DNA of 64,000 bases from Raja brachyura (Eukaryota): NCBI GenBank assembly GCA_963514005.1, contig OY740787.1:30814001-30878000 (forward strand). Reading direction: 5' to 3'. Shown here in pieces: positions 2,337-45,600 of the stretch; positions within the stretch are counted from its first letter, which is position 1, and every line of letters starts with the position of its first letter. The position numbers were made by a program, and so were the translations under genes. Below the pieces are notes generated by a model, which searched no databases, was not told the origin of the DNA, and saw only the letters and a program-made list of their open reading frames with translations.

Positions 2337-3325
2337 AATAGAAACATAGAGACATAAAAAATAGGTGCAGGAGTGGGCCATTCGGCTCTTCGAGCCTGCA
2401 CTGCCATTCAATATGATCATGGCTGATCATCCAACTCAGTATCCCGTACCTGCCTTCTCTCCATACCCCCTGATCCCCTTAGCCACAAGGGCCACATCTA
2501 ACTCCCTCTTAAGTATAGCCAATGAACTGGCCTCAACTACCTTCTGTGGCAGAGAATTCCAGAGATTCACCACTCTCTGTGTGAAAAATGTTTTTCTCAT
2601 CTAGGTCCCAAAAGTCCCCCTAATCTTCCCCCTTATCCTTAGACTGTGACCCCTTGTTCTGGACTTCCCCAACATTGGGAATAATTTTCCTGCATTCCTG
2701 CATGTAAGTTTCTATAAGATCCCCGTCAATCTTCTAAATTCTAGTGAGTACAAGCCAAGTCTATCCAGTCTTTCTTCAAATGAAAGTCCTGACATCCCCG
2801 GAATCAGTCTAGTGAACCTTCTCTGTACTCCCTTTATGGCAAGAATGTCTTTCCTCAGATTAGGAGCCCAAAACTGTACGCAATACTCCAGATGTGCTGC
2901 TGCTTCTCCAGGTTCCTAATATGGTCCCTTATGAGCCCCATCTCGAAACACCAAGTACAGATGTGGACGTCTGGAGGGCTATCAGACTCCATGACCTCCC
3001 ACATCTGACATCCACACAGTACACTGCCCTGGCACTCATACTCCCCCCTTACCCTGGCTACAATACAAAGTACAATACAATACAATACAAAGTGCTGGAA
3101 GAAATCAGCAGGGATCTGACTCCCAATCAGCTGCTTCCTCTCGTCCGCTTCCACCAATCAGCGGCTTGCTCAAGCCCACTTGTTTTGAAATGTGAATGGA
3201 ATGTTACAGAGTTGGGCAGTCCTCCCTCTGCAACGGCTCCTCAGCCTCTGTGGAAACAAGCCTCGTGATCGGTTTTTGAACATACTGCCCGGACGTCGCT
3301 CCTCCCTCTGCAACGGCTCCTCGGC
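2337..3325 (-). mobile_element. Internally deleted or chimeric CR1 LINE (5' UTR and ORF1 start fused to ORF2 3' end and tail)
   Basis: 2897-3325 matches the 5' UTR and ORF1 N-terminus of the 12616-17488 element (CQMWEVMESD). 2337-2896 matches the CR1 3' end at 27566-28126, with a (TCTATGTT)n-like tail. Confidence 0.85.
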
Positions 3326-3344
3326 ACTTCTAGCTTTCATCACT

Positions 3345-3560
3345 TACTCCACCAGTTTCCCCCCCCCCCCCACCCTTCACCTGTATCCACCGATCACTTG
3401 TCCAGCTTTGTGCCACCCCCTCCACAAAATTTCTATCTACTCCTGAAGAGTCTCAATTCGAAACGTGATCTGTTTATTCCCTCCATAGATGTTGCCTGTC
3501 CTGTTGGGTTCCTCCAGGACTTCCTTTTTCACTTATGATTCCCTTCATCTTTTGTCTCAG
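3345..3560 (+). mobile_element. Penelope-associated terminal repeat fragment with hammerhead-like core
   Basis: ctgaagagtctcaattcgaaacgtg followed by agatgttgcctgtcctg. Same repeat as 7358-7422 and 35084-35220. Confidence 0.55.
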
Positions 3561-3601
3561 TTGAAGTAAACAATATCATATTAATTAATATTTAGATTGT
3601 A

Positions 3602-4846
3602 CTAGACTCGGTGGGACCTGTTGGGTCCCAGCATCACATGGGAGGGCTGGTCCCCTAACGCAATATTCCACCTCTCCACCAATTCCAATATTGGTGGTCA
3701 GTGGGGGGGGGGGTTTGGCTTTCTGGAGCACTAGTATGGGTGTTGTGGGCTAAATGGACTGGTTTCCAGAGGGCTAGTATGGACATTGTGGGGCGAATGG
3801 ATTCTTGGGCTAGCGGCTCAGTCACTCGAGCCTGTTGTGCTGGCAGGTCACTCATGGCTGGTGGGCTGGCAGTTGACTTACGGCTATTCCTTGAAATTCA
3901 ATTTCAAGCAGGGTGCAAGGCCACCAAATTCAAGTGCAGTTTCTTACCACTTCAAGCAGGGTGCAAGGCCACCAAATTCAAGTGCAGTTTCATACCATTT
4001 CAAGCAGGGTCAAAGCCCATTAAAGACAGCGAGTCGTGACCTCTCCCTGCTCCATCTTGCAAGAGACTGAGCCACGCCCACACTTCTGGGTTTTATAGTC
4101 CCTCCCCCTTCCCACCTGAAGGGGCGTGACCTTCATGGCATGATTGACAGGAGAGAGAATCTCAACATTTTTTAAACACTAATAACTCTTTTATTTTTAA
4201 TTGATGGGAAAAATCCTCGGCACCTGATGAGCGGAGGGGGACTGTGTAAGATGGCAAAAAAATCACAGCCGTACGTGGTAGCGTTCTTTCTAAAATCAAT
4301 ATAAAACGCAACCAGGAAGTGGTCAAGATTAGACTTTTAATTATATAGAAGGCAAGGCAACTTTAATTATGCAAGGCAACTCTAATTAGGCAAGGCAACT
4401 TTAATTAGGCAACACAGCTTTAGCATTTCCAAACCACAGGCAACACAGCTTTAGAATTGCCAAACCAAATGCAACACAGCTTTAGCATTTCCAAACTATA
4501 TTTTCAAACCACATTAAGGGCACTGACAGGTCAGTAAAACCACTCACAGTTTAGTAGACATGTGTTCAGTGATATTTACAGCTAAGACTGAGAGACGTGA
4601 CCCTCTCGCTCCCCCATCTTGCAGAGACTGACTGAGGCACTCGTGGCCTTCAGGAGAGAGAATCTCAACATTTTTTTAACACATAACTCTTTTATTTTTC
4701 ATCGATGGGAAAAATCCTCTTGTCCTGCACAGCGGAGGGGGACTCTGAGTAAGATGGCCAAAAATCACAGCCATAACTGGCAGCGTTTTTTCTAAAATCA
4801 ATATACAGAACTATAGTGGTCAAGATCCGACTTTTAGTAATATAGA
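3602..4846 (-). mobile_element. Complete non-autonomous Helitron (family A)
   Basis: Minus strand starts a|TCTATATTACTAAAAG and ends CTAG|t. Inserted in an AT dinucleotide with no TSD. 7-bp-stem hairpin tgggacc-tgttg-ggtccca at 3612-3630 next to the CTAG. Internal 48-bp and 19-bp tandem repeats. Confidence 0.9.
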
Positions 4847-12695: not shown

Positions 12696-15633
12696 TTAGT
12701 CCCACCTGCCTGCACTCATACCATAACCCTCCATACCCTTCTCATCCATATGCCTATCCAATTTATTTTTAAATACCAACGAACCTGCCGCCACCACTTC
12801 CACTGGAAGCTCGTTCCACACCGCTACCACTCTCTGAATAAAGAAGTTCCCCCTCATGTTACCCCTAAACCTCTGTCCCTTAATTCTAAAGTCATGTCCT
12901 CTTGTTTGAATCTTCCCTATTCTCAAAGGGAAAAGCTTGTCCACATCAACTCTGTCTATCCCTCTCATCATTTTAAAGACCTCTATCAAGTCCCCCCTTA
13001 ACCTTCTGCGCTCCAGAGAATAAAGACCTAACTTATTCAACCTATCTCTGTAACTTAGCTGTTGAAACCCAGGCAACATTCTGTACCCTCTCTATTTTGT
13101 TGACATCCTTCCTATAATTGGGCGACCAAAATTGTACACCATACTCCAGATTTGGTCTCACCAATGCCTTGTACAATTTTAACATTACATCCCAGCTTCT
13201 ATACTCAATGCTCTGATTTATAGAGGCTAGCATACCAAAAGCTTTCTTTACCACCCTATCTATATGAGATTCCACCTTCAAGGAACTATGCACAGTTATT
13301 CCCAGATCCCTCTGTTCAACTGTATTCTTCAATTCCCTACCGTTTACAATGTACGTCCTATTTTGATTTGTCCTGCCAAGGTGTAGCACCTCACATTTAT
13401 CAGCATTAAACTCCATCTGCCATCTTTCAGCCCATTTTTCCAACTGGCCTAAATCATTCTGTAGACTTTGGAAATCCTCTTCATTATCCACAACACCCCC
13501 TATCTTGGTATCATCTGCATACTTACTAATCCAATTTACCACCCCTTCATCCAGATCATTGATGTACATGACAAACAACAAAGGACCCAACACAGATCCC
13601 TGAGGCACCCCACTAGTCACCTGCCTCCAACCTGACAAACAGCCATCCACCATTACCCTCTGGCTTCTCCCATTCAGCCACTGTTGAATCCATCTTGCTA
13701 TTCCTGCATTTATACCCAACAGTTGAACCTTCTTAACCAACCTTCCATGAGGAACCTTGTCAAAGGCCTTACTGAAGTCCATATAGACAACATCCACTGC
13801 TTTACCCTCGTCAATTTCCCTAGTAACCTCTTCAAAAAATTCAAGAAGATTAGTCAAACATGACCTTCCAGGCATCAATCCATGTTGACTGTTCCTAATT
13901 AGACCCTCTTTATCCAGATACTTATATATATTATCTCTAAGTATCTTTTCCATTAATTTGCCCACCACTGAAGTCAAACTAACCGGTCTATAATTGCTAG
14001 GTTTACTTTTAGAACCCTTTTTAAACAATGGAACAACATGCGCAGTACGCCAATCCTCGGGGACTATTCCCGTTACTAATGACATTTGAAATATTTCTGT
14101 CATAGCCCCGGCTATTTCTACACTAACTTCCCTCAATGTCCTAGGGAATATCCTGTCAGGACCTGGAGACTTATCCACTTTTATATTTTTCAAAAGTGTC
14201 AGTACTTCTTTTACTTTGAAACTCATAGTATCCATAGCTACTCTACTAGTTTCCCTTACCTCACATAATTCAATATCCTTCTCCTTGGTGAATACCGAAG
14301 AAAAGAAATTGTTCAATATCTCCCCCATCTCTTTTGGCTCTGCAGGTAGCTGTCCACTCGGTCTCTCCAATGGACCAATTTTATCCCTTGTTATCCTTTT
14401 GCTATTAATATAGCTGTAGAAACCCTTTGGATTTACTTTCACCTTACTTGCCAAAGCAACCTCATATCTTCTTTTAGCTTTTCTAATTTCTTTCTTAAGA
14501 TTCTTTTTACATTCCTTATACTCCTCAAGCACCTCATTTACTTCATGCTGCCTATAATTATTGTAGATCTCCCTCTTTTTCCGAACAAGATGTCCAATTT
14601 CCCTTGAAAACCAGGGCTCTTTCCAATTTTTACTGGTTCCTTTCAACCGAACAGGAACATAAAGATTTTGTACTCTTAAAATTTCCCCTTTAAATGTCCT
14701 CCATTTCTCCTCTACATCTTTCCCATAAAACAAAATGTCCCAGTTCACTCCTTTTAAATCATCTCGCATCTCGTTAAAGTTAGCCTTTCTCCAATCAAAA
14801 ATCTCAACCCTAGGCCCAGTTCTGTCCTTCTCCATAATTATATTGAAACTAATGGTATTGTGATCACTGGACCCGAAGTGCTCCCCAACGCATACCTCCG
14901 CCACCTGTCCCGTCTCATTTCCTAACAGGAGGTCCAGCACTGCCCCTCCTCTAGTAAGCACCTCTATGTATTGCTGCAAAAAACTATCCTGCACACATTT
15001 TACAAACTCCAAACCATCCAGCCCATTTACAGAATGTGTTTCCCAGTCTATGTGTGGAAAGTTGAAATCTCCCACAATCACTACCTTGTGCTTACTACTA
15101 ATATCTGCTATCTCTTTACATATTTGCTCTTCCAATTCTCGTTCCCCATTTGGTGGTCTATAATATACCCCTATAAGTGTTGCTACACCTTTCCCACTTC
15201 TAAGTTCCACCCAAATAGCCTCCCTAGATGAGCCCTCCAATCTATCCTGCCAAAGCACTGCTGTAATATCTTCCCTGACTAGCAATGCAACACCTCCACC
15301 TCTTGCCCCTCCAATTCTATCACACCTGAAGCAACAAAATCCTGGAATATTTAGTTTCCAATCACAGCCCTCCTGCAACCATGTTTCACTGATCGCCACA
15401 ACATCATACTTCCAGGTGTCTATCCAGACTCTAAGCTCATCCACCTTTCTTACAATGCTCCTAGCATTAAAATATGCACATTTAAGAAACCCCCCATCTC
15501 TTATTCTCTGTTTATTTCCTTTTCTTTCTTTCTCCTCTTGTGTCCGAGTGCTTCCCTTTTCTGCTTCCTGCCTCCCATTCTGTCTACTAGCTTTTGCTAT
15601 TTGCATCCCTCGCCCCAACCATTCTAGTTTAAA
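12696..15633 (-). pseudogene. CR1 ORF2: apurinic-type endonuclease plus reverse transcriptase; one frameshifting microdeletion near 13080
   Basis: 893-aa ORF with [28 protein letters not shown] and YADD. C-terminal 127 aa continue in ORF 12696-13079, with RRFTR missing at the junction. Confidence 0.95.
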
Positions 15634-16560
15634 GTCTCCCCAGTGGCCTTTGCAAATTTCCCCGCCAGGATATTGGTCCCCCTCGGGTTCAAGTGCAACC
15701 CATCCTTTCTGTACAGGTCCCACCTACCCCAAAAGAAGTCCCAATGATCCAGAAACTTGAATCCCTGCCCTCTGCACCAGTCTTTCAGCCAAGCATTTAT
15801 CCTCCACCTTGCTCCATTTCTACTCTCACTGTCACGTGGCACAGGCAGTAATCCTGAGATTGTTACCTTTTTGGTCCTTTTCCTCAACTCTCCTCCCAAG
15901 TCCTTAAATCCTCCCTTCAGGACCTCTTCCCTTTTTTTACCTATGTCATTGGTACCTATATGTACCACAACCTCAGGCTCCTCTCCCTCTGATTTGAGGA
16001 TATCTTGGACACGTTTAGACACGTCCAAGACCTTGCCACCAGGGAGGCAGACCACCATCCTGGTCTCCCGACTGCGTCCACAGAATCGCCTATCCGACCC
16101 CCTAACAATAGAGTCCCCAATTACTATTGCCCTCCTCTTTTTTTTCCCTACCTTTCGGAGCAACAGGGCCGGTCTCTGTGCTGAAGGCCCGTCCGCTGTC
16201 GCTACCCCCGGGTAGGCTGTCACCCCCATCCGTACTCAAACAGGAGTACTTATTTGCCAGGTGTACTGACATTGGAGTACTCACTCGTTCATGCCTCTGC
16301 CCCTTGCCCTTCCTTAGCGTGACCCACATGTCTCTCTCCTGTGGTTTTGGAGTGACCACCTCCCTATAACTCTCCTCTATCACCTTTTCACTCTCCCTGA
16401 CCAGGCAGAGGTCATTGAGCTGCTGCTCCAGGATCCTAATACGGTCCCTTAGGAGCCCCATCTCTCTGCACCTGATGCAGATGTGGACGTCAAGAGGGCC
16501 ATCCGACACCATGACCTCCCACATCTGACATGCAGTACAGTACACTGCTCTGGCTGACAT
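15624..16560 (-). pseudogene. CR1 ORF1: CxxC-CxxC zinc finger, coiled coil and SGNH esterase; frameshift in an A-run near 16140
   Basis: CTAC...CIRC, GDSIV, GTND and DGLH motifs split over ORFs 16102-16560 and 15624-16229. Colinear with the intact ORF at 24118-25065. Confidence 0.92.
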
Positions 16561-16689
16561 TCTCTCGCCTTACCCTGGATCCGATACCAGTATAATATAA
16601 TGGAAACTGCTGTGAGAAATCAGCAGGTATCTGACTCAAACTGCTGCTCCCAACTTGACCTTTAACCTACACCTTTATTATACAAACCA

Positions 16690-17657: not shown

Positions 17658-18620
17658 CTATGAAACAGAACTTAAAACAGAATGGGCGAACACCCCGGCT
17701 TCAACAAGCAGCTTATTATAAAACCTTTGAAAAGTCAATTCATTTGACCATCCTGCGGCCACGAGGATATGGTCTAGGGGGATGACAATTGCCCTCGCCA
17801 CTGATGTTGATGCTGCCCTGGTGGAGTGAGATTTAAAATTGTCAGTATTAACTCCTGCACATCCCAACACTTGCTTCAGCCATCGTGAAATGGTCTGAGC
17901 TGAAACTTTCATATGTGGCTTTTTGTGGCTAATAAACAATGCTTGCCCAGAGCCTCGAAGGCTCTTCGTGACTTCAATATAATGCCGCAAGTGTGCCACC
18001 ACACACAGCCGTAAATCCATGGGATAAGCTAACAGTACAAGCTTGAATCCAAACACCCCTGGCCTGCTTTGTTTAATTAGGTCATAGATGTAAAATTTAA
18101 CATAATTCTGTAAGGACACCATCCTGTCCAGGCACAGTTTATGCAAGGTCTGAACCCTTTGCGCTGATACGAGCGCCATGAGCACAACCAACTTAAGGGT
18201 AATCTTTGTTAAGGGCAAAGATGTGGCTGTACCCCATTGACGAAGCAGCGTCAGTACCATGCTTACATCCCGGATTTCAGAATACCTAGGCCTAGGAGGA
18301 TTAGAGTTAAAAACACCCTTCATAAATCTGGAAATTAACGGATGAGATCCTATAGACGGAAGGTCTGACCCCCATCATAGGTACGAGGACAAAGCGCTCC
18401 TGGCACTGTTGATGGCACTATAGCTCAACCCTTCATCGAAATGTAAGTTGGACAGAAATTCGAGCACATATGGGATGGAGGCTGTGTGGTATGTAATGTT
18501 CCCCTGTAAACAAAATTTCTCCCATTTCCTGACATGAAAGATTTACTGCCTTTTCGTACTATCCCTCCATGATGCTGTGATGACATCCATGGTCTGATTG
18601 GATAGTGCCAGACCCAGATA
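17658..18620 (-). pseudogene. DIRS tyrosine recombinase
   Basis: ORF 17658-18323 has SAQR, HSTR, AGWS and FQRFY (R...HxxR...W...Y catalytic residues). Upstream SAM-like domain is disrupted. Confidence 0.9.
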
Positions 18621-18628
18621 TGGCCTTC

Positions 18629-19330
18629 TTAATATCTGCAAATCAACAAATTTAGACGATCATACAATGGGTGTTGACCTCCATTCACAGGGTGCACTAA
18701 CAGATTATGACATTTTGGAACCACCATAATAGGTTGTGTACTATTACCCGAAATCAGAGGGAACCATGGCTGTGTAGGCCAGTCGGGTACCACCAAAACC
18801 CCTGAAGCGGAGTCCTGTTTGATCTTAGTCAAGCACCGACTGATGAGGCAGAAGGGGATAAATGCATATAAAAACATTCCGCCCCAGTGCAGCGAGAATG
18901 CATTCACTGCAACTGCCCCAGGGTCTGGTTCCCATGAAACATATTTCGGTACCTGGTGATTAAGCATGGATGCAAACAAATCGATATCTAGTACCCCATA
19001 TCGGAGAACAATTTCCTTAAATACATCATGATTCAACATCCACTCAGTGTTGTCGTTGAATTTGCGTGACCTGGTGTCTGCCACCATATTGAATCTGCCT
19101 GGCAATCCAAATATTCTTTTTAATGCAGCAGTGCCAAATAAGGTTAGCCAAGCCGTCACAAGATTTCGATTTGATTCCACACATGTGATTAACATACGCC
19201 ACTGCTGTGGTGTTGCCAATCTGAAGCTGAACATGTAAGTGATGCTTAGTGGTACAGTAAGCTTTGAGCCCATAAAATGCCACAAAGGTGTTTCCAATTA
19301 ATAAGATGTCATCCAAATAGGCCATTACAA
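18629..19330 (-). pseudogene. DIRS RT C-terminus, RNase H and adenine-methyltransferase-like domain (frameshifted, internally deleted)
   Basis: MAYLDDILL, GNTTAVAYVN, NMVADTRSR, IDLFAS, LYAFIPF and VPDWPTQPWFP motifs. Confidence 0.88.
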
Positions 19331-19875
19331 TATAGAAACATAGAAACATAGAAATTAGGTGCAGGAGTAGGCCATTCGGCCCTTCGAGCCTGCACCACCA
19401 TTCAATATGATCATGGCTGATAATCCAACTCAGTATCCCGTACCTGCCTTCTCTCCATACCCTCTGATCCCCTTAGCCACAAGGGCCACATCTAACTCCC
19501 TCTTAAATATAGCCAATGAACTAGCCTCAACTACCCTCTGTGGCAGAGAGTTCCAGAGACCCACCACTCTCTGTGTGAAAAAAGTCCTTCTCATCTCGGT
19601 CCTAAAGGATTTCCCCCTTATCCTTAAGCTGTGACCCCTTGTCCTGGACCTCCCCAACATCGGGAACAATCTTCCTGCATCTAGCCTGTCCAACCCCTTA
19701 AGAATTTTGTAAGTTTCTGTAAGATCCCCTCTCAATCTCCTAAATTCTAGAGAGTATAAACCGAGTCTATGCAGTCTTTGTTCATAAGACAGTCCTGACA
19801 TCCCAGGAATCAGTCTGGTGAACCTTCTCTGCACTCCCTCTATGGCAATAATGTCCTTCCTCAGATTTGGAGACC
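19331..19875 (-). mobile_element. 5'-truncated young CR1 3' end inserted in the DIRS RT
   Basis: Open ORF2 C-terminus (19430-19875) and (TCTATGTT)n tail. It splits DIRS RT between LLWSQG and IVMAYLDD. Confidence 0.93.
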
Positions 19876-20208
19876 CTGTGACCATAATAACCCTAGTACT
19901 GGTTTTAGTAATTTGGTAAATAAGCGAGGGGCTGAGGTTAACCCATTAGGCAGTGCTCTAAACTACCATAATTGCCCCAACCAGCTAAATTTCAAATATC
20001 TCCGATATTCTTTATGAACAGGCACTGAATAATATGCATCTTAAAGATCTATAGATGTCATATAACACCCTCTGGAAAACAATTGCTTGGCAGTAGCGAA
20101 CGTTTCCATCTTAAAATGATTATACTGCACAAACGGATTAAGTCCTATCAGGTACAAAATAATCCGACACCCACCATCTTTCTTTGGTCTAGGAAACATA
20201 TTAGACCA
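19876..20208 (-). pseudogene. DIRS reverse transcriptase N-terminal half
   Basis: Manual translation gives RPKKDGGCRI...HFKMET...SIDL*DAYYSVP...FRALPNGLTSAPRLFTKLLKP. Confidence 0.88.
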
Positions 20209-22798
20209 TGGGGGAGTGTTTGCCCTAATGTTGTCAGGGAGGATTTAAACTAATGTGGCAGGGGGTGGGAGCATGAGCAGAGAGAGGGATGTAAAATGAG
20301 GGTAAAAGCAATAGGTAGCAAGGTGAAAAGTAAAAGTGGCAGGCAGACAAATCCAGGGCAAAAATCAAAAAGGGCCACTTTTCAACATAATTGTATAAGG
20401 GGTAAGAGTGTTGTAAAAACAAGCCTGAAGGCTTTATGTCTCAATGCAAGGAGCATTCGTAATCAGGTGGATGAGTTGAATGTGCAGATAGTTATTAATT
20501 AATATGATATCATTGGGATCACGGAGACATAGCTCCAGGGTGACCAAGGCTGGGAGCTGAACATCCAGGGATATTCAATATTCAGGAGGGATAGACAGAA
20601 AGGAAAAGGAGGTGGAGTAGCGTTGCTGGTTAGAGAGAAGATTAACGCAATGGAAAGGAAGGACATTAGCTTGGAGGATGTGGAATTGATATGGGTAGAG
20701 CTGCGAAAACTAAGGGGCAGAAAACGCTGGTGGGTGTTGTGTACGGCCACCTAACAGTGGTAGTGGAGTTGGGGATGGCATCAAACATGAAATTAGAAAT
20801 GTGTGCAACAAAGGTAAAACAGTTATAATGGGTGACTTCAATCTACATATAGATTAGGTGAATCAAACTGGCAGGGGTACTGAGGAAGAGGATTTCATGG
20901 AATGTATGCGGGATAGTTTTCTAAACCAACATGTAGAGGAACCAATGAGAGAGCAGGCTTATCTAGACTGGGTACTGAGTAATGAGGAAGGGTTAGTTAG
21001 CAGACCATTGAGTGTTGCCCCTTGGGCAAGAGTGACCATGATATGGTTGATTTCTTCATTAGGATGGAGAGTGACATTGTTAATTCAGAAACAAGGGTTC
21101 TGAACTTAAAGAAAGGTAACTTTGAGGGTATGAGATGTGAATTGGCCAAGATAGACTGGCAAGTGATTCTTAAAGGGTCGAAGGTGGATATGCAATGGGA
21201 GGCTTTTAAAGACTGCATGGATGAACTACAACAATTGTTCATCCCAGTTTGGCAAAAGAATAAACAGGGAAGATAGTGCATCCGTGGATAACAAGGGAAA
21301 TCAGGGATAGTATCAAAGCAAAAGATAAAGCGTACAAATTAGCCAGAAAAAGCAGCCTACCAGAGGACTGGGAGAAATTCAGAGAACAGCAGAGGAGGAC
21401 AAAGGGCTTAATTAGGAAAGGAAAAATAGATTATGAAAGAAAAGTGGCAGGGAACATAAAATCTGACTGCAAAAGTTTTTATAGATATGTGAAGAGAAAA
21501 AGGTTAGTTAAAACAAATGTAGGTCCCTTGCAGTCAGAAACTGGTGAATTGATCATGGGGAACAAGGACATGGCAGACAATTGAATAACTACTTTGGTTC
21601 TGTCTTCACTAAGGAAGACATAAGTAATCTGCCAAAAATAGGAGGGAACCGGGGGTCAAATGAGATGGAGGAACTGAGTGAAATCCAGGTTAGCTGGGAA
21701 GTGGTGTTAGGTAAATTGAATGGATTAAAGGCCGATAAATCTCCAGGGCCACATAGGCTGCATCCCAGAGTACTTAAGAAATAGTGGATGCATTAGTGAT
21801 AATTTAGAGATTAGCATTCAAACTTAAAGCACATGGTATTGGGGGTTCAGTGTTGATGTGGATAGAGAACTGGCTGGCAGACAGGAAGCAAAGAGTAGGA
21901 GTAAATGGGTCATTTTCAGAATGGCAGGCAGTGACTAGTGGGGTACCGCAAGGCTCAGTGCTGGGACCCCAGCTATTTACAATATATATTAATGATCTGG
22001 ATGAGGGAATTGAATGCAACATCTCCAAGTCTGCGGATGACACAAAGTTGGGGGGCAGTGTTAGCTGTGAGGAGGATGCTAGGAGGCTGCAAGGTGACTT
22101 GGATAGGTTGGGGGGGTGGGCAAATGCATGGCAGATTCAGTATAATGTGGATAAATGTGAGGTTATCCACTTTGGCGGCAAAAACAGGAGGGTAGACTAT
22201 TATCTGAATGGTGGCCGATTAGGAAAGGGGGAGATGCAATGAGACCTGGGTGTCATGGTACACCAGTCATTGAAAGTAGCCATGCAGGTGCAGCAGGCTG
22301 TGAAGAAAGCGAATGGTATGTTGGCATTCATAGCAAAAGGATTTGAGTACAAGAGCAGGGAGGTTCTACTGCAGTTGTACAGGGTCTTGGTGAGGCCACA
22401 CCTGGAGTATTGTGTACAATTGTGGTCTCCTAATCTGAGGAAAGCCATTCTTGCCATAGAGGGAGTACAGAGAAGGTTCACCAGACTGATTCCTGGGATG
22501 GCAGGACTTCCATATGAAGAAAGACTGGATAGACTCGGCTTGTACTCGCTGGAATTTAGGAGATTGAGGGGGGATCTTAAAAAAGACTTACAAAATTCTT
22601 AAGCGGTTCGACAGGCTAGATGCAGGAAGATTGTTCCTGATGTTGGGGAACTCCAAAACAAGGGGTCACAGTTTAAGGATAAGGGGGAAGCCTTTTCGGA
22701 CCGAGATGATCATTTTTCACACAGAGAGTGGTGAGTCTGTGGAATTCTCTGCCACAGAAGGTAGTTGAGGCCAGTTCATTGGCTATATTTAAGAGGGG
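20209..22798 (+). mobile_element. Decayed CR1 LINE from the end of ORF1 to near the end of ORF2; internal deletion near 21803; tail lost
   Basis: Closely parallels 25023-27968. APE and RT fragments with stops and frameshifts. Confidence 0.93.
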
Positions 22799-24117: not shown

Positions 24118-25065
24118 ATGTCAGTAGAGATTGGCCCCATGGTTTGCTCAGCCTGCAACATGTGGGAGATCAGGGATATGGTTGGTGTCCCTGGTGACTA
24201 CGTTTGCAGGAAGTGTGTCCAGCTGCAGCTCCTGGCAGACCGCATTGAACAATTGGAACTGCGGCTGGACTCATACTGGAGCATCCACGATGCAGAGAAA
24301 GTCGTGGATAGCACATACAGCAAATTGGTCACACCGCAGGTAAAAGGTAAGAGGACAGAAAGGGAACGGGTGGCCATTAGCCAGCGTAGCAGTAGGCAGG
24401 TGGTGCAGGAGTCCCCTGCGGTCATCTCCCTCCCAAACAGGTATACCATTTTGGATACTGTTGAGGGAGATGGCTCATCAGGGGAATGCAGCAGCAGCCA
24501 AGTTCATGGCACCATGGGTGGCTCTGTGGCACATGAGGGGGAAACAAAGAGGGGAAGAGCAATAGTAATAGGGGATTCAATTGTCAGGGGAATAGATAGG
24601 TGTTTCTGCGGCCACAAACGAGACTCTAGGATGGTATGTTGCCTCCCTGGTGCAAGGGTCAGGGATGTCACTGAACGGCTGCAGAACATTCTGGAGGGGG
24701 AGGGTGAACAGCCAGTTGTCGTGGTGCATATTGGCACCAACGATATAGGTAAAAAAAGGAATGAGGTCCTACAAGGTGAATTTAGGGAGCTAGGAGATAA
24801 ACTTAAAAGTAGGACCTCAAAGGTAATAATCTCTGGATTACTACCAGTACCACAGGCCGGTCAGAGTAGAAATAGGAGGATATTGCAGATTAATACGTGG
24901 CTTTTAAAATGGTGCAAGGGGGAGGGATTCAAATTTTTAGGGCACTGGAACCAGTTCTTGGGGAGGTGGGACCAGTACAAACAGGACGGTTTGCACCTGG
25001 GCTGGAATGGAACCAATGTCCTTGGGGGAGAGTTTGCTAGTGCTGTCGGGGTGGATTTAAACTAA
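24118..25065 (+). CDS. CR1 ORF1p: zinc finger, coiled coil and SGNH/GDSL esterase domain (315 aa, open)
   Basis: ATG to stop. CSAC...CRKC, heptad leucines, GDSIVR, HIGTND, DGLHL. Confidence 0.9.
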   Translation: MSVEIGPMVCSACNMWEIRDMVGVPGDYVCRKCVQLQLLADRIEQLELRLDSYWSIHDAEKVVDSTYSKLVTPQVKGKRTERERVAISQRSSRQVVQESPAVISLPNRYTILDTVEGDGSSGECSSSQVHGTMGGSVAHEGETKRGRAIVIGDSIVRGIDRCFCGHKRDSRMVCCLPGARVRDVTERLQNILEGEGEQPVVVVHIGTNDIGKKRNEVLQGEFRELGDKLKSRTSKVIISGLLPVPQAGQSRNRRILQINTWLLKWCKGEGFKFLGHWNQFLGRWDQYKQDGLHLGWNGTNVLGGEFASAVGVDLN

Positions 25066-28035
25066 TGTGGCAGGGGGATGGGTACAAGAACAGAGAGGCA
25101 GGTGGGTGTAAAATGAGGGCAGAAGCAATAGGTAGCAAGGTGAAAAGTAAAAGTGGCAGGCAGATAAAACCTCAAAAGGGCAAAAATCAAAAAGGGTCAC
25201 TTTTCAACATAATTGTATAAGGGGTAAGAGCGTTGTAAAAACAAACCTGAAGGCTTTGCGTCTCAATGCAAGGAGCATTCGTAATAAGGTGGATGAGTTG
25301 AACGTGCAGATAGCTATTAATGATTATGATATAGTTGGGATCACGGAGACAAGGCTCCAGGTTGACGTAGGCTGGGAGCTGAACATCCAGGGATATTTAA
25401 TATTCAGGAGGGATAGAGAGAAAGGAAAAGGAGGTGGGGTAGCGTTGCTGGTTAGAGAGGAGATTAATGCAATGGAAAGGAAGGACATTAGCTTGGAGGA
25501 TGTGGAATTGGTATGGGTAGAGCTGCGAAACACTAAGGGGCAGAAAACGCTAGTGGGTGTTGTGTACGGGCCACCTAACAGTAGTAGTGAAGTTGGGGAT
25601 GGTATCAAACAGGAAATTAGAAATGTGTGCGACAAAGGCAAAACAGTTATAATGGGTGACTTCAATCTACATATAGATTGGGTGAATCAAATTGGCAGGG
25701 GTGCTGAGGAAGAGGATTTTTTGGAATGTATGCGGGATAGTTATCTAAATCAACATGTAGAGGAACCAACAAGAGAGCAGGTTATTTTAGACTGGGTTTT
25801 GAGTAATGAGGAAGGGGTAGTTAGCAGTCTTGTTGTACGTGCCCCCTTGGGCAAGAGTGACCGTAATATGGTTGACTTCTTCATTAGGATGGAGAGTGAC
25901 ATTGTTAATTCAGAAACAATGGTTCTGAACTTAAAGAAAGGGTATGAGACGTGAATTGGCCAAGATTGACTGGCAATTAATTCTAAAAGGGTTGATGGTG
26001 GATATGCAATGGAAGACATTTAAAGACTGCATGGATGAACTACAAAAATTGTTCATCCCAGTTTGGCAAAAGAATAAAACAGGGAAGGTAGTGGATAACA
26101 TTTGTGGATAACTAGGGAAATCAGGGATAGTATCAAAGCAAAGGAAGATGCGTACAAAGTAGCCAGAATAAACAGCATACCAGAGGACTGGGAGAAATTC
26201 AGAGACCAGCAGAGGAGGACAAAGGGCTTAATTATGAAAGGAAAAATAGATTATGAAAGAAAAGTGGCAGGGAACATAAAATCTGACTGCAAAAGTTTTT
26301 ATAGATATGTGAAGAGAAAGAGATTAGTTTAAACAAATGTAGGTCCCTTGCAGTCAGAAACAGGTGAGTTGATCATGGGGATCAAGGATAGGGCGGACCA
26401 ATTGAATAACTACTTTGGTTCCGTCTTCACTAAGGAAGACATAAATAATCTTCCGGAAATAGCAGGGGACAAAGGAGGAATTGAGTGAAATCCAGGTTAG
26501 TCGGGAAATGGTGTTGGGTAAATTAAATGGATTAAAGGCCGATAAATCCCCAGGGCCAGATAGGCTACATCCCAGAGTACGTAAGGAAGTAGCTCCGGAA
26601 ATAGTGGATGCATTAGTGATAATATTTCAAAACTCTTTAGATTCTGGAGTAGTTCCTGAGGATTGGTGGGTAGCAAACGTAACCCCTCTTTTTAAGAAGG
26701 GAGGGAGAGAGAAAACGGGGAATTACAGACCAGTTAGTCTAACATCGGTAGTGGGGAAACTGCTAGAGTCAGTTATTAAAGATGGGATAGCAGCACATTT
26801 GGAAAGTGGTGAAATCATTGGACAAAGTCAGCATGGATTTACAAAAGATAAATCATGTCTGACGAATTTTGTGGAATTTTTTCAGGATGCGACTAGTAGC
26901 TTGGATAAGGGAGAACCAGTGGATGTGGTGTATCTGGACTTCCAGAAGGCTTTCGACAATGTCCCACATAAGAGATTAGTATACAAACTTAAAGCATATG
27001 GCATTGGGGGTTCAGTATTGATGTGGATAGAGAACTGGCTGGCAAACAGGAAGCAAAGAGTAGGAGTAAATGGGTCCTTTTCACAATGGCAGGCAGTGAC
27101 TAGTGGGGTACCGCAAGGCTCAGTGCTGGGACCCCAGCTATTTACAATATATATTAATGATCTAGATGAGGGAATTGAAGGCAATATCTCCAAGTTTGCG
27201 GATGACACTAAGCTGGGGGGGCAGTGTTAGCTGTGAGGAGGATGCTAGGAGAGTGCAAGGTGACTTGGATAGGCTGGGTGAGTGGGCAAATGTTTGGCAG
27301 ATGCAGTATAATGTGGATAAATGTGAGGTTATCCACTTTGGTGGCAAAACCAGAAAAGCAGACTATTATCTAAATGGTGGCCAATTAGGAAAAGGGGAGA
27401 TGCAACGAGACCTTGGTGTCATGGTACACCAGTCATTGAAAGTAGGCATGCAGGTGCAGCAGGCAGTGAAGAAAGCGAATGGTATGTTAGCTTCCATAGC
27501 AAAAGGATTTGAGTATAGGAGCAGGGAGGTTCTACTTCAGTTGTACAGGGTCTTGGTGAGACCACACCTGGAGTATTGCGTACAGTTTTGGTCTCCAAAT
27601 CTGAGGAAGGACATTCTTGCCATAGAGGGAGTGCAGAGAAGGTTCAACAGACTGATTCCTGGGATGTCAGGACTGTCTTATGAAGAAAGGCTGGATAAAC
27701 TTGGGTTATACTCTCTGGAATTTAGGAGATTGAGAGGGGATCTTATAGAAACTTACAAAATTCTTAATGGGTTGGACAGGCTAGATGCAGGAAGATTGTT
27801 CCCGATGTTGGGGAGGTCCAGGACAAGGGGTCACAGCTTAAAGATAAGGGGGAAATCCTTTAAGGCCGAGATGAGAAATACTTTTTTCACACAGAGAGTG
27901 GTGAGTCTCCGGAACTCTCTGCCACAGAGGGTAGTTGAGGCCAGTTCATTGGCTGTATTTAAGAAGGAGTTAGATGTGGCCCTTGTGACTAAGGGGATCA
28001 GAGGGTATGGAGAGAAGGCAGGTACGGGGTACTGA
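25056..28035 (+). pseudogene. CR1 ORF2 (endonuclease plus RT) with several frameshifts and stops
   Basis: ORFs 25256-25954, 26102-26332, 26481-27230 and 27166-28035 carry consecutive APE/RT motifs ([18 protein letters not shown]). Confidence 0.95.
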
Positions 28036-28404: not shown

Positions 28405-29240
28405 ATAAAAATCTCATCTTGTCCTCTTCCGGTTTGCGTTGTTTTTAAATTTGCGCAAAAATGGTACCCATTAGCGCTACGATGTTTTTGCCACCTTACT
28501 AGCCGTGCAAGTGCATCAAGTTGTATTCCAATCGGTGAAATATTACAAAAGTTATTTGTCTGTTATTTGCCGGGTCAGCAACGCCCCTTCCGGCACCCGC
28601 TGTCAATCACCAGCGGCAAGAATAAAGCTGAAGGAGCGGAAGAGCAGAGTGTGGGCTGTGTACCGCGGGCGGGGGCTGTGTTCTGCGGGAATGGGCTGCG
28701 TTCTGCGGGAGTGGGCTGCATTCCACGGGAGTGGGCTGCATTCCGTGGGCGGGGCTGTGCTCCGTGGGCGGGGGCTGTGTTCCACGTGCAGGGCCGGTGG
28801 CCACCATGACGAGCCGGGGGCTGATGAGGGAGCTGCTGAGTGCGACAGGACCCAGGGACGGGAGCCGTTGAGTGCGGTCGGAGCCAGGGCAGGGAGCCGC
28901 TGAGCCCACACACCCCCCTCAATCCCCCGCCCACATCCCCCCTCCCCCCACACCCTACATTCCCCCCACACCCTCCTTCCCCCTCACATCCTCCCTCCCC
29001 CCCTCCTCCCCCCACACTCCCTCCCTCCACAACCCCCCTCCACCACACACACCCCTCCCCCTCCCACATGCACACCCTTCGCTACGCCCACAACCCCCCT
29101 CCACCACACACCCTCCCTCCCCCACACACCCCCTCCTCCACACCCCCCCGTCCCTCACACACCCCTCCCCCTCACACCCCGTTTCCAACACCCCCACACG
29201 CCCCCCCTCCACCAAACCCCCCCCCCCTTTCCTCCTTGTT
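28405..29240 (+). mobile_element. Non-autonomous Helitron-like element (family B), termini eroded, with C-rich low-complexity tract
   Basis: Reverse-complement homologue of 35440-36399. 5' part aligns with the family A 5' end (tttttgccaccttact vs tttttggccatcttact). Confidence 0.65.
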
Positions 29241-32104
29241 CCTTGGCCCACTAAATATTTGAGCATTTGCCAAATATTTCAGGTCAACTATCACTCTAGG
29301 GTGAGAAATGATACAATATACAAAAAAAAACACTGAACATTATGTTGGTGAAAAATATAGGCGTATGGAATTTCATTAGTTTTCTTCTTTGATGTTGGAC
29401 ACCACAATGAAATGATAAGCAATCAGGAAACTATTGATCTTTCTGTGGAGGCTGAAAATAAAACTGTACCCCTGGAGAAGTTCATATATATAGAAAATGA
29501 CTTTTAGTGTGCCTGATCAATATTTGAGCCAAATGAGTCAGTTGTCTAGCTATAGAACAATTGGAGAATTAAGACAAGGTGACACGAGGTGCATTATGAT
29601 ACTTTGAAGAAAATAATCAAACTGTGAATGGCCTTGAGTCAGTGAAGAGCAGTGACTGTGACAATGATAAAAGTTGATGTGACACAGATGCATATTGCCA
29701 GAAAGCAAATAAGATGTTTGAGTGAATTTTTAAATGCACTGGCTTTATTACCTTTGGGGTTATCTTCGTATAAAAATGTGTTACAAAGGACAGAGTATAT
29801 TTTAGTACTTGCCTATTTAAATTTAAGCTAATTTTGTTTATAAACCATTATAAACTGCTCACACTTTAGTGACACATTATGGAAATATTTGATAGCTTGG
29901 TGTAAAGGCTCAAGATATGTGGGAAATATTTAATTTCAATCAATGTTGATTAGTGCTTCGATATCTGTGGACAACAATTATTTTATAACATTAAGAGATT
30001 GATACGCCACTGTTTGGAATAAATGCTTTTTTATTCTGATTTAAAACAAGTGTTCCAGTATGCAATTATTTGATTATAGGTTATATCTATACCTTTTCCA
30101 CCATCACTTTGATTGACACTTAATATTGTAAGTAATATCACAGCTTCCATCAAGTATTTAGGGGATATCATGCCTAGCAATGTAGAATTAATAAATCATA
30201 TTTCCTACCTGATTTATTATTATTAAAATAGGATGGAAACAATGCTCAACAAATATTATGTTCACTGTTTTGGTATTTTAACCCTTGCTTACTCATTGGT
30301 CATGCACACTGTTGACTGCAGATCTTTGTATTAATAATACTTTTAATTTATTGTAATTATACAATAGATGGAACATAAGTGCTGGGAATCAGTCTTTCAT
30401 GTTGGTTGCCTAATGGTGTGGAAGTGAGCAAGAATCATGTCCCACTGTGAAAGGAGACTTGACCAGTGCTTAATGAACTGTTGTTAGTCACAACCATTCT
30501 TGGTGAGTCTTTGATATTGTATCCATTCAGTTGCAATTTAGCATGGCATGTCCATTTGGAGGGGGTGGTATTTACTGACAAGTTGAGGATGGTCTGGGAA
30601 AAGGTTCAGAAATGTGTCAGAACAACACAACCATATACACTTGAGTTTCCCTAATGTTTGTGTTGGACATAATAGCTTTCTAGCGATTTCAGCATTTTTC
30701 TTTGGTTGGAGTATAAATGTACATATTTCCAGGCTTTAAATCTAGTTTGACAAATAGTGGAGGAATTCTTCACCTGTCCTGGCTATCATTTTACTTTTTA
30801 ACCACCAGCATAGGAAGAGATGATCTTGTTTGTGAAGCCTTTACTGTTTGTGGACATGTGGTGTATTCAAATTGATCACCAGCATCTTGGCATGGTGAAA
30901 ATATGTAGCATAAATTACTAATTCCCTTTTTATTTTGCAAGTGTCTTGAACTGTGCATGATATGCCTGCCGAAAGAAAACAAAATGAAATAATTTGTGGA
31001 AGGTAGTAGAAATGCTTTGCTATGCACACTAAATGGACTGCAATGGTAGGATACTATTGGAGAAAATGCCAAATTACTACACTTGGTCAACTAACTATAA
31101 AACAAGATTAGAATGGATGTGCGGCCAAGATTAGATCACCCATAATCTTGCTGAATAAAAGAGGGTTCAAGATGCCATAGGACCTACTCCCATTCCTTTA
31201 GTTTTTATGTTTTTATACTGAGTGTTTTTAGGCTCTGCTGGTTGTCTGTGCAGACTGCTCATGGTGCACAGATTTGCCTTTACTTGATGTGGAGGGCCAT
31301 GTGATTTGACTCTCTTCCATCAAGAGGTGAGCTGCAAGATGGAACGGGCTACAAGTGAGCTTCCCATGCATCGTATCTTGGGGTTGTGACTGTAACTGAC
31401 TGCTAGAGAACTGTTATTTGCTAACTGTTTGTAGCTCAGCATGATTTGGTGAAAGACAGAATTTGTAATGCTAGGTGCAGTAACTAGAAAGTGGCTGAAA
31501 AAGGCTACAATTCAATGAAAGGCCACAATTCAATGAAATAAAACAATATACCCAAATTGCAATTGCTTTCAACAGATCAAAGCAGAATAAGAGAACATAA
31601 TTTGGACCTTTTAAATAATTTCAAAGAGTATTTAATAATATTGCCGAGGTAGTTGATGGAATGTGGTAAAATATTTTATTTATATTCTTCCTGTGTACAT
31701 CCATAACTCTCTTCCATTGATAAGTACATTGAATGAAACATTGAAGAAAATTAAGATTTGTTATTTTTTTCTAATAAGGAATATATATATATATACACAT
31801 ATATTTATCATACCTTGTAATAAAACAGTAACTTGGAAATACATTAGTATAATGGTGGTAATGACTATTTTATATTGATTACCACAATTATTCTAATGAT
31901 ATATTTGGAGGCCCTATTAATAAATAAAATATGCTTGCATTTGAAGGAATTATGGTTAGCGATCATTATGAATGTTTCAGGAAAGTTTTTTTTAACATCC
32001 AGTAACACATCTTTCAATAATAAAATGTATCATACTAGAAATGGAATTTTCATAAGTGTGGGCTAAATCCCAGTGTTGACCACACCCTTCCACCAAACCC
32101 AACC

Positions 32105-35222: not shown

Positions 35223-35400
35223 AATATTTTTTTTGTTATTTATTCAAGATGATCAGGTAGTACATCAAGGTGTCTGATATTCCCTGCAATACCAGATTGG
35301 CTGCCTTGACCAAATAAAGAAATTCTGTTTTCAGGATAAGATCAGTTCCACCAGCGTTTCATGCACCAGGAAATGGCAATGTGGCCATGTAGTTTACAAT

Positions 35401-36399
35401 CTAGCTTCTAACTATTGACCAAGAGGTGACTGCATCATAAAGGGGGGGTGTGGATGGGGGTGGGGGAGGCGGAGTGGGGGAGGGTGTCTTTGGGGGAAGG
35501 GGTGGGGGAGGGGGGTGTGGGGGGTAGGGGAGGGGGTGTGTGTAGGGGTGTGTGGAGGTGTAGGGGATAGGGGGTTGTAGGGGGAGGGGGGTGTGGAGGA
35601 GGGGGTTTGTGGGGGTAGGGGAGGGACGGAAGAGGGGGAGGGTGTGTGTGTGTGTGGGGGAGGGGGGGTGTGGGGAGGGGGCGGGTGCTGGGAGGGGAGG
35701 TTTGACGGGGTTGTGGGGGTGGGGGGAAGGGGGAGGGCTGTTGGTGGTAGGCGAGGGGTAGGGTTGTGTGGAGGAGGGGGGTGTAGGGGGGGAGTGTGGA
35801 GGGGGTGTGTAGGGAAGTGGGGTGTAGGGGAGGGGGGTGTACTGGAATGAGGGGTGTGTGGGGGAGAGGTGTGTGTGGAAGGGGGGAGTGTGGAATGGGG
35901 GGGAGTGTGGAAGGGGGGGTGTGTGGAAGAGGGGGGTGTGTGGAGGGGGGTGTGTGTGGGGCGTGGGGGAGGGGGAGGGGGAGGGGGTGTGTGGGCTCAC
36001 AGGTTCCCGGCCCAGGTTCCAACCGCACTCACTGGCTCCAGGACCTGGCTCCGGACTCACTCAACGGCTCCTGGCCCCAGCGCCTGTCACGCTCACAGCT
36101 CGCCCCCGCCGCCGAACACAGCGAGCCTGCGAACACAGCCCGCACTCCGCTGCTTCAGCTTTATTCCAGGCGCCGGTGATTGACAGCGGGTACCGGAAGG
36201 GGCATCGCCATCCTGGCGAATATCAGACCAATAACTTTTGGAATATTTCACCGATTGGAACAGAACTTGGTGCGCTTGGAGCAGAGGAGAACAGTGAGTA
36301 AGGTGGCAAAAAAACCTAGCGATATAAGGTACCGTTTTTGTGCAAATTTAAAAACAACGCAGACCGGAAGAGGACAAGATGTGAGTTTTAGTAATAGGA
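35401..36399 (-). mobile_element. Non-autonomous Helitron-like element (family B) with about 550 bp G-rich tract
   Basis: Minus strand starts a|TCCTATTACTAAAA, homologous to the family A 5' terminus. 3' end is uncertain: CTAG at 35401-35404 but no clear hairpin. Confidence 0.7.
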
Positions 36400-42644: not shown

Positions 42645-45600
42645 TGTAGATGGTTTATGCATACAACCGATAATATAGCTACCTCAGTTCCATTAACCCC
42701 GCCTTAGTTAACATCAATCATAACGCTTTCCCCTCCCTGGGTATAGTTCAGTAGAAGAATGTAACCAGTGCTTGCTGATGTGTGTTACACCGTATGCTAT
42801 CATTAAAGGATGTTATACACTTCAAGAGTATGTGATTTGCTTATTTACATGGTGTCGAAGTTAGATGGTACCTGCATCTCCTGTCTATCGGTTTTATTTA
42901 TTTATTTTGAATTTGTGCTCAATCTCTCTGGCCATGGTGTCTTCTTGCAGAAAGCCCGCGCAGCTTGTCTTTGATGCTGACATATCTGAGCGCTGGGCCA
43001 CGTTTGAATTTGATTTCACCCACTTTGTCAACGTCGTGCACCGCGCGGAACCTGACTCTGTTAAAGCCTCCCTCCTCCTCAACCTTGTTGGACCTGATGC
43101 CATGAGGAGAGCCAGAACTTTCACCTACGCTCCAGCGGTCCTGGACGCGAATAACGTGCTGATTACTCCTGCAGAATCAGACAGTGACCCCACTTGCCTG
43201 CTACGTAAGTTCAGGGAGATTTGTGACCTGCCCTCAAACCACATTCTAGAGAGGGCACGGTTTTTTACAAGGAAACAGTTGCCGGATGAACCTATCGAAC
43301 ATTTTACTGCTGATTTGAGTTATCTTGCCCAGCGGTGCCGTTTCGGTGACATGACAGACCAGCTCACTAGGGACATTTTAGTAACTGGCATGCATGACCA
43401 GAAGTTGCATTGTGAGCTACTAAGGGATTTGGATCTAATGTTAGTCAAAGCTATGCATGCGTGCAGAATGTCTGAGGTCGTTGAACTGCCAGATGACCAC
43501 CGTGATTCGGGCACGAAATCTATCAACCTGGCTGGCTTTAAGAGGCCACAGCTTCGGATGGGAAACACTGCTTTCCTGCCGTGTGCCAACCCAGGTCCTG
43601 GCGAAATGCCCCCCAAGAGGTGCCCAAACTGTAACTACATGCACCACAGACTGTCGACGTGCCCTGCCTATGGTAAGGCCTTCAATTTTTGTAAAAAAGT
43701 GAATAATTTCTCTGCAGCCTGTCAGGCCTGTGGGAAACCTGTACAGACTTCCAGACCAAATCAAAACAGGCTGACACAATCTGATAACTGTCACGGCTCA
43801 CAGTCTGCCATAGCAGAATCCTACGACGAGGAACCCACTAGTTCTCCAGAGGAGTTGAGCGTGTTTACCCTCCTCCACGCACCCGGCCAGCATAACAATC
43901 CTACCGTATCAATAACTGTCAATGGTTTGACCTTCCTCGCTATGTTAGACTAGGTGAGAGTGAATGTTTTGTCAATAAACCTTTTCAACATGATAACGAA
44001 TAATGAGGCCTTGATTGCTGACCGTTCAACTCTGCATGCCTATGGAGGAGAGATTCTAAGGCCAGTGGGGAGGGCCACTTTAACTTGTGTGCTGCAAAAG
44101 GCCACGCAAAACCTGTTTTTTTACATTTTGATTTCTGACTGTGTGACTCTGCTGGGCAACCGTGCGTGCCAGGATCTTGGCCTGGTGTCCTTCGACGGCA
44201 CGGTCCACAAAGTGCAACTGTCATTTGACCCAGTAGCAGAATACCAAGACCTGTTCAACGACGACCTGGGAAAGTTACCACTGACTGACCGTATTTCTAT
44301 TGACCTAAATGTGATGCCGTGGTCCACGCACCGCACAGGGTGTCTCACGCCATGAAAGACAAGGTCGAGGCGATGCTCAACAACATGGTCGAAATGGGGG
44401 TGCTAGAAGCGGTTAGCAAGCCCACCGATTGGGTATCCACCATGGTTGCCAAGCTAAAGAAAGACAAGAATGAAATACGCGTGTACATCAACCCGAAGGA
44501 CATAAACCTTGCCATCAGTAGACCCCACTACCCCATGCGGTCTGTTGAGGACGTTGTGGCCCAGGTCAGAGAGGCCACCGTCATTTCGGTCCTAGATGCT
44601 AAGAACTCGTTTTGGCAGATTCCATTGGACAAAGGGTCTTCTGACCTGACAACCTTCTCCACACTGTTTGACAGATTCAAGTTTCTGCGAATGCCATTCG
44701 GCATCAATTCCGCTAGTGAGGTGTTCCAGTGAACGATGGAGCAGATATTCTCGGACCTGCCATGTGCCATCATCGTGGATGATATCCTGGTCAATGGGAA
44801 GGACATTGCTGAGCACGACCTGAACCTTCGCTGCGTCCTGGATCGGGCGCAACTGGCCAACCTGAAACTGAATCCCAAGAAATGCCGGCTTCGTGTCTCA
44901 GAAGTCACGTATGTTGGACATGTCTTCACCTCTACCGGACTAAAACCCGACCCTTATGAAGGCCACTGCCATCTCCGAGATGGTAGCCCCCACCGACGTG
45001 CCAGGTCTGCAACAATTCCTGGGCATGGTGAATTACCTTGGGAAGTTTATACCAAATCTTTGTGAGCTGAGTGCACCCCTGCAGCAGCTGACAAAAAAGG
45101 ATATCGCCTGGGCCTGGCTCCCACAGCACCAGCAGGCTTTCAACTGTCTCAAGTCCAGACTGATTAACACACCGACATTGAGGTTCTTCGACGTGAGCCG
45201 CCCCACCACCGTCACCTGTGACGCTTCCAAGTTTGGTCTGGGCGTGGCCTGCCTTCAGTCTGTCGATGGATCGTTACATCCTGTCTCCTATGCCTCCCGC
45301 ACCATGACGAACACCGAGCAGAGGTACGCTCAGATCGAGAAGGAGCTGCTTGCGGTAGTTCACAGACTTCCTGTTTGGCAGCAAATTCACGGTCGAAACC
45401 GACCACCAGCCACTGGTGACAATTCTGAACAAACCGATTCATGCTGCCCCTGCCAGGCTGCAGCGTATGATGCTGCAGCCCCAGCGTTTCAACTTCAATA
45501 TCGTCTATAAGAAGGGCACCGAGATGCACATTGCGGACACCCTGTCCCCCGCCCCGCGGACCTCCTGTGCCCGCCACCCTTACGAAGCAGAAGACTTGCC

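Follow-up and report, generated by a model that had tools for sequence, protein, structure and literature searches.

A conserved U_UUA_AAC heptamer at the ORF1-ORF2 junction of esterase-type CR1 retrotransposons, a probable site of programmed -1 ribosomal frameshifting

The second open reading frame (ORF2) of LINEs (long interspersed nuclear elements) is described as being translated by unconventional initiation (PMC5009743). According to the same source, U_UUA_AAC ranks among the shiftiest heptamers on mammalian ribosomes. Elements of the CR1 group are reported to be the dominant retrotransposons of most vertebrates (PMC13343379). Here we analyzed a 64,000-nucleotide (nt) stretch of the Raja brachyura genome (contig OY740787.1, positions 30,814,001 to 30,878,000 of the forward strand), called the window below and numbered from its first letter, which holds three CR1 junctions between ORF1 and ORF2. 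The junction is a real, conserved feature of these elements. Judged from the sequence comparisons that follow, esterase-type CR1 LINEs probably rely on programmed -1 ribosomal frameshifting to produce ORF2, and the product would be an ORF1-ORF2 fusion.

An initial annotation of the window had proposed that each ORF1 ends in T-TTA-AAC followed directly by a stop, with ORF2 in the -1 frame, and this was borne out at three of three junctions (Table 1). Across the two strands of the 64 kb, the pattern TTTAAACTA[AG] occurs just five times, three of them at the CR1 junctions. In the family A copy, which lies on the minus strand, the -1 frame is indeed the open ORF2 frame; counted from the heptamer it spans 863 codons and holds the endonuclease and the reverse transcriptase (RT). 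This ORF2 is broken near its end, with the remainder in another frame at 12696-13091. The 5-nt insertion proposed for the family B copy at 25056 is present and places the endonuclease motif at +202, compared with +197 in an intact relative. The copy at 20244 is decayed downstream of the heptamer, as had been read, and its homology with the 25056 copy starts at about 20206, so that only about 40 nt of ORF1 are left. The G-rich tract that had been placed behind the heptamer is also there, with the tract starting at +7 and a GGGG run at +11.

Table 1. Features of the CR1 junctions in the 64-kb window
Feature	Position	Strand	Remark
Slippery heptamer U_UUA_AAC, last codons (Leu-Asn) of family A ORF1	15627..15633	-	sequence read
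ORF1 stop TAG adjoining the heptamer, family A copy	15624..15626	-	sequence read
ORF1 3' part, SGNH/GDSL esterase, family A copy	15624..16235	-	
ORF1 5' part of family A copy, other frame	16102-16569	-	
ORF2 of family A, -1 frame: charged linker of 53 codons, then APE endonuclease and RT; 863 codons	13042..15633	-	
G-rich tract, candidate stimulator; GGGG starts 11 nt past the heptamer (15616)	15607..15620	-	
In-frame ATG, codon 10 of the -1 frame, specific to family A; sister subfamilies and the RNA of a related species have ACT	15604..15606	-	
5'-truncated family B copy: heptamer 20244-20250, TAA, about 40 nt of ORF1 end	20206..20253	+	ORF2 frame decayed
Intact family B ORF1, 315 aa, SGNH esterase	24118..25065	+	
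Heptamer 25056-25062, TAA stop and overlapping ATG (TAATG), family B copy	25056..25067	+	
5-nt insertion breaking the -1 frame, family B copy	25172..25176 (about)	+	

In profile searches, PF13472 (SGNH esterase) scored over the cut-off in ORF1 of families A and B, and ORF2 contained PF03372, PF14529 and PF00078 (APE endonuclease and RT) and no detectable protease domain. The best ORF1 match in PDB was the 4C1B ORF1 esterase (E = 1.4e-44), and the closest named homologues of the window ORF1 were from sharks and rays (genome 2.7 Gb). We apply the label CR1 provisionally, from the likeness of the junction to consensus elements named CR1 in PMC13343379.

To compare junctions across lineages, we used seven representatives (A, A2, A', B, C, D and L151), of which A, A2 and A' are close kin and B, C and D were sampled partly with heptamer-containing queries, so that the variant patterns counted below serve as the control. 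Over the last 130 residues their ORF1 proteins are 29-88% identical. In all seven, the last ORF1 codons read NNT-TTA-AAC and all three synonymous positions are fixed. The residue before Leu varies (Thr, Asp, Val, Gly or His), as does the stop after Asn (TAG, TAA or TGA), and the two invariant Leu codons of the upstream DGLHL motif are spelled variously TTG, CTG, TTA and CTT. From the codon usage of the ORFs in the window itself, the background expectation is about 0.26 x 0.13 x 0.26, or roughly 0.01 per independent lineage. Synonymous-site conservation beyond the need to encode Leu-Asn, which the initial annotation had named as the thing to look for, was found in every family examined. L151 comes from a metagenome record and is of sturgeon type, matching a protein cluster with sturgeon-named members; it was the one vertebrate-type CR1 junction among 20 metagenome loci. 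None of 36 candidates on viral contigs had such a junction, and L172, the one locus read of 10 in prokaryote records, is not a CR1 junction.

We then counted ORF1 ends across the genome, fixing the DGLHL motif 19 codons upstream of TTTAAAC-stop and allowing, at that spacing only, single variants that keep Leu-Asn. The exact TTTAAAC-stop was present in 6,505 of the 6,759 matched ends, and the reversed-pattern control gave a single match. Variants together made up 254 of 6,759 (3.8%): 116 with AAT (100 of them listed), 84 with a first heptamer base other than T, 37 with TTG and 17 with a CTN codon (CTN-AAY). Those listed are scattered over all families, apart from a few near-identical neighbours, and include no active variant family; they look like decay after insertion. 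Because copies decay neutrally, the absence of a variant family is the informative result. The sole cluster with a CTA codon, L224-L227, which was the one cluster inspected, was considered as a counter-example and rejected, being a broken ORF1 fragment lacking an endonuclease and amplified together with its flanks. In these loci (G000 C25, C336 and C837) the CR1 ORF1 fragment is dead and contains a (TG)n tract, and the copies, flanks included, are 92-99% identical.

The same junction was found in other vertebrates. In Supplementary Table 2 of PMC13343379, where the first ~400 nt of each consensus were searched, sequences are gappy and taxa were taken from name codes, tttaaacta had 23 matches, 17 of them, by reading, at the end of ORF1 and six elsewhere. 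The 17 comprise two elements from alligator, three from crocodile, two from catshark, three from dogfish, and one each from bowfin, bullfrog, chimaera, stingray, coelacanth, sawfish and a teleost. With a lizard consensus element that carries the TGA form of the junction, 18 published elements extend from sharks to crocodilians and a lizard. Eleven variant spellings of the heptamer gave 22 matches in the same set, none of which, by reading, lies at an ORF1 end. In two parts of the supplement read whole, the ORF1 end is visible in 4 of 22 CR1 rows, and the heptamer is present in all four. No junction was found in the supplements of PMC8665684 and PMC4316615, of which all files but one were searched.

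Protein ends were compared as well, with counts that are not independent since many of the fetched ORF1 proteins are near-copies. Of 351 such proteins, 244 have their C-terminus no more than 45 residues from the esterase D-x-x-H motif, and 83 of the 90 that terminate 26 residues past it end in Leu-Asn. This set of 83 includes named proteins of sharks, rays, Xenopus, turtle, coelacanth, mormyrid and sturgeon; one lizard protein has LK at its end and one skate protein has IN. A further 106 unnamed proteins, known from proteins alone, end in Leu-Asn 39 residues past the motif, and the dipeptide therefore travels with the stop in that group. Sixteen catfish L2-type ORF1 proteins (among P0061-P0094) end in Thr-Ile (TI), 24 residues past the motif, and those elements may use another mechanism for ORF2 and would offer a natural control. 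The solved L2-type esterase 4C1B aligns to profile position 316 of 320 only and stops before the Leu-Asn position. Given this end and the TI ends, the esterase fold does not need Leu-Asn.

Two further observations concern these proteins. Proteins P0185-P0276, from the European Nucleotide Archive (ENA), form a distant esterase-ORF1 group (~33% identity) on long contigs, and they too end in Leu-Asn, at a distance from the active-site motif that is greater by 13 residues; the signal may extend outside vertebrates. In a Hypanus gene model (P0034), ORF1 continues without a break into the linker of the -1 frame and the start of the endonuclease, as expected from a genomic one-base indel at the heptamer.

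ORF2 lay in the -1 phase in every family examined, in line with the initial annotation. The -1 frame was open from the heptamer to the endonuclease motif at 62 of 75 loci in family A, 44 of 65 in B, 9 of 13 in A' and 5 of 9 in C, the remaining loci being broken or truncated and some copies having been fetched twice. In the natural full-length copy L234, 974 codons are open. The intervening linker is 33-76 codons long, and the other frames carry stops across it. Upstream, the -1 frame reaches a stop 5-22 codons before the heptamer, with no Met in between. Shuffling gave probabilities of 0.004-0.30 for an open linker, to which we attach little weight as copies were picked for being open. In two family C loci (L189 and L217), the linker is similar at its end to the long linker of family B, the ORF1 proteins of the two families being 43% identical, which suggests recombination within the linker.

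Programmed -1 frameshifting is favoured because the heptamer stands in slip phase, its synonymous sites are fixed, ORF2 overlaps in the -1 frame and there is no conserved AUG. On this model, tRNA-Leu and tRNA-Asn would change their pairing from UUA AAC to UUU AAA, after which the ribosome would continue in the -1 frame across the charged linker. A minority of ribosomes would thereby produce an ORF1-linker-endonuclease-RT fusion, and most would stop and release the ORF1 protein. The G-run about 10 nt downstream might aid the pause, in which case a protein bound to it or the ribosome itself is a likelier agent than a fixed fold.

The best surviving alternative, which we consider unlikely, is that ORF2 is a separate protein made by AUG-free termination-reinitiation, as proposed for mammalian L1, with the heptamer serving to pause or position the ribosome as it terminates. 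ORF2 of both L1 and SART1 depends on ORF1 translation and reinitiation (PMC5009743, PMC2881922, PMC5972666), and AUG-free reinitiation fits an open frame behind the stop without a structured stimulator. It does not explain why an exact X_XXY_YYZ sequence sits in slip phase with fixed synonymous sites and a constant -1 phase, and L1 itself has a 63-nt spacer between its ORFs (PMC5972666).

Start codons bear on a second and still less probable alternative. Here ORF2 synthesis, in families B and A at least, would depend on an AUG, either by stop-start coupling of the SART1 type (UAAUG) or through reinitiation at an AUG close by; this could also accompany frameshifting. The first in-frame Met is at codon 10 in A, codon 4 in B and codon 26 in C. 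The TAATG overlap that had been read in the plus-strand family is present in the family B copy, itself yields the -1 phase, and recurs in consensus elements of dogfish and catshark. Among the seven lineage representatives it occurs in family B only, so that a conserved coupling of the SART1 type was not seen. For the minus-strand copy, an absence of an in-frame AUG at that place had been claimed, which holds for the stop overlap only, as there is an ATG at codon 10 (15606-15604); an out-of-frame (+1) ATG stands directly behind the ORF1 stop. No Met precedes the endonuclease motif in A', in L221 (family D) or in L151, and another family D copy has one at codon 42. Subfamily A' has at least 742 copies. 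In a sample of 30, 13 were open to the endonuclease motif; in three of these a Met occurs sporadically at codon 46-47, and in the other ten the first Met is at codon 143-269, inside the endonuclease. The proposed independence of ORF2 from a shared downstream AUG is supported by a large subfamily without one before the endonuclease. With such an AUG missing from A', D (L221), L151 and most published junctions, AUG-dependent initiation cannot serve as the general route to ORF2. In family B, stop-start coupling may act in addition to frameshifting.

RNA reads from a related species further reduce the weight of the family A AUG. Four runs, three of them raw RNA runs from that species, were aligned to 15250-16050 at 88% likeness, with differences listed from 3%; depth at the junction was ~150-170 in two runs and ~3,500 in a single-cell run. 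At 15604-15605, about 98% of the related-species RNA reads differ and turn ATG into ACT, as in A2 and A'. The in-frame AUG of family A is recent. No indel or splice joint at the heptamer was listed at 3% or more, which leaves room for slippage below 3%, and no focused read start or end was listed near it. These reads derive from many copies, possibly intronic, and show neither element-driven expression nor translation. None of the indexed sequencing runs that contain the sequence is on record as RNA, a result that is uninformative on expression. In run X22, loose read ends occur at 15580, 15594, 15630 (within the heptamer) and 15653, with 150-176 reads each of ~3,000-4,500; they resemble what we take to be a template-switch oligo and, being among many loose ends, may be ordinary.

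That the heptamer is fixed for some other reason, be it the protein's C-terminus, a signal for RNA processing, an internal promoter or polymerase slippage that inserts an RNA base, is highly improbable: TTTAAA is TATA-like and most close homologues end in Leu-Asn, but protein need cannot fix synonymous sites, the reads list no such indel or joint at 3% or more and no focused start, and an internal transcript would still require an AUG.

Several points weigh against frameshifting. The case is built from sequence comparisons, and both studied LINEs, L1 and SART1, use termination-reinitiation (PMC2881922, PMC5972666). The published consensus matches were found through the heptamer itself. Copy counts mostly mirror neutral decay; only the lineages count as independent, and these have a common ancestry. 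An in-frame AUG does precede the endonuclease in families A, B and C, at the codons given above. Finally, a structured RNA stimulator 3' of the heptamer, for which the initial annotation had marked the place, is not supported, as there is neither a conserved local fold nor a conserved distant partner. In eight representatives, we found no conserved hairpin or pseudoknot in the 60-150 nt past the heptamer, with z scores from -3.6 to +3.1 that are inconsistent between families; the folding method does not model pseudoknots, and even a shared first stem was not seen. A G-quadruplex is predicted in just four of the eight, and not in family A. Among 15 elements there was no conserved long-range partner of the G-tract, the best partners differing by family and often lying in flanks.

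The lineages do have a G-run in common. The first GGGG starts at +11 in five of seven lineages and at +8 and +9 in the other two, and by eye it is at +11 in several published junctions of the PMC13343379 set. The usual spacer of RNA-structure stimulators is given as 5-9 nt, and the protein-bound motif of PRRSV (the virus of porcine reproductive and respiratory syndrome) lies at 11 nt (PMC5009743); the CR1 spacer of about 10 nt is above the former and near the latter. Read in the -1 frame, the G-run codes for Gly, and the element as a whole is rich in G; the run may therefore be partly coding or compositional. As a candidate stimulator it is the weakest link of the case.

A wider proposal, which we put forward only tentatively, is that the esterase-CR1 elements of jawed vertebrates have kept one coronavirus-type -1 site since before the split of sharks and bony vertebrates, fusing endonuclease-RT to the ORF1 esterase, and that the shift is stimulated by an unstructured G-run about 10 nt downstream, either protein-bound or as a quadruplex. 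Stimulators of this type are known only from viruses or synthetic constructs, and CR1 would then provide a natural example outside viruses. Natural G-quadruplex frameshift stimulators are stated not to be known as of 2016 (PMC5009743). If frameshifting is true, the active enzyme would be an ORF1-ORF2 fusion; annotating ORF2 from its first AUG would be an error or would remove part of the endonuclease; CR1 retrotransposition assays would have to retain the junction; and host anti-frameshift factors could restrict CR1 elements. The candidate signal is about 30 nt long.

The window contains other repeats. Fragments at 17658-19472 (-) resemble a tyrosine recombinase and RT/RNase H by their translations, and presumably belong to a DIRS-type element. 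Broken frames at 42865-45814 (+) have gag-pol-like translations, which we take to be of a Gypsy-type long terminal repeat (LTR) element. Translations also revealed a decayed element and nested RT fragments at 50880-54621 (+) and 55484-58222 (-), presumably L1/Tx1-like and Rex1/L2-like. Related C-rich low-complexity tracts at 28600-29300 and 35400-36200 lie in opposite orientation with similar flanks.

We found no literature linking CR1 to ribosomal frameshifting, the original CR1 and SART1 papers, which may mention the site, lying outside the search. CR1 is not mentioned in the first 300,000 characters of PMC5009743, and the word frameshift is absent from the main text of PMC13343379 and from PMC4120745, as far as these texts were available; in the available text of PMC11835228 it concerns avian leukosis virus ALV-E, and that of PMC5006619 likewise makes no CR1-frameshift link. 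Nor did the literature accessible to us give any account of CR1 ORF2 translation, the LINE models in its reviews being reinitiation models. Frameshifting at this junction would likely put a known recoding mechanism to a new use, in one of the major LINE clades of vertebrates.

Among known systems, the coronavirus ORF1a/1b junction (U_UUA_AAC in infectious bronchitis virus; PMC5009743) has the identical heptamer in the identical phase, gating a polymerase-bearing -1 ORF. It differs from CR1, a non-LTR retrotransposon, in which no pseudoknot or stem-loop was found 5-9 nt downstream and the stop adjoins the heptamer. In retroviral gag-pol (ALV-E, PMC11835228), a -1 shift likewise joins the first ORF to an RT-bearing ORF at a low ratio, but CR1 ORF1 is an esterase rather than Gag; with no protease domain found in CR1 ORF2, the fusion would either remain uncleaved or depend on a protease of the host. 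PRRSV resembles CR1 in that a short low-complexity motif ~10-11 nt 3' of the shift site replaces a fold (PMC5009743), as the candidate in CR1 would; its motif is C-rich, is bound by nsp1beta and poly(C)-binding protein (PCBP), and directs mainly a -2 shift, whereas the candidate motif of CR1 is G-rich. Among LINEs, the APE-type elements TRE5-A and TRE3-A of Dictyostelium are stated to require a -1 frameshift for ORF2 (PMC5911963), a stated precedent, and their ORF1 and host are unrelated to those of CR1. SART1, with UAAUG coupling, and L1, with unconventional reinitiation (PMC5972666, PMC2881922), share with CR1 a bicistronic RNA, their ORF2 depending on ORF1 translation, and family B shares UAAUG. 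Their ORF2 product is a separate protein, whereas conservation at the CR1 junction falls on a slippery site, not on an AUG.
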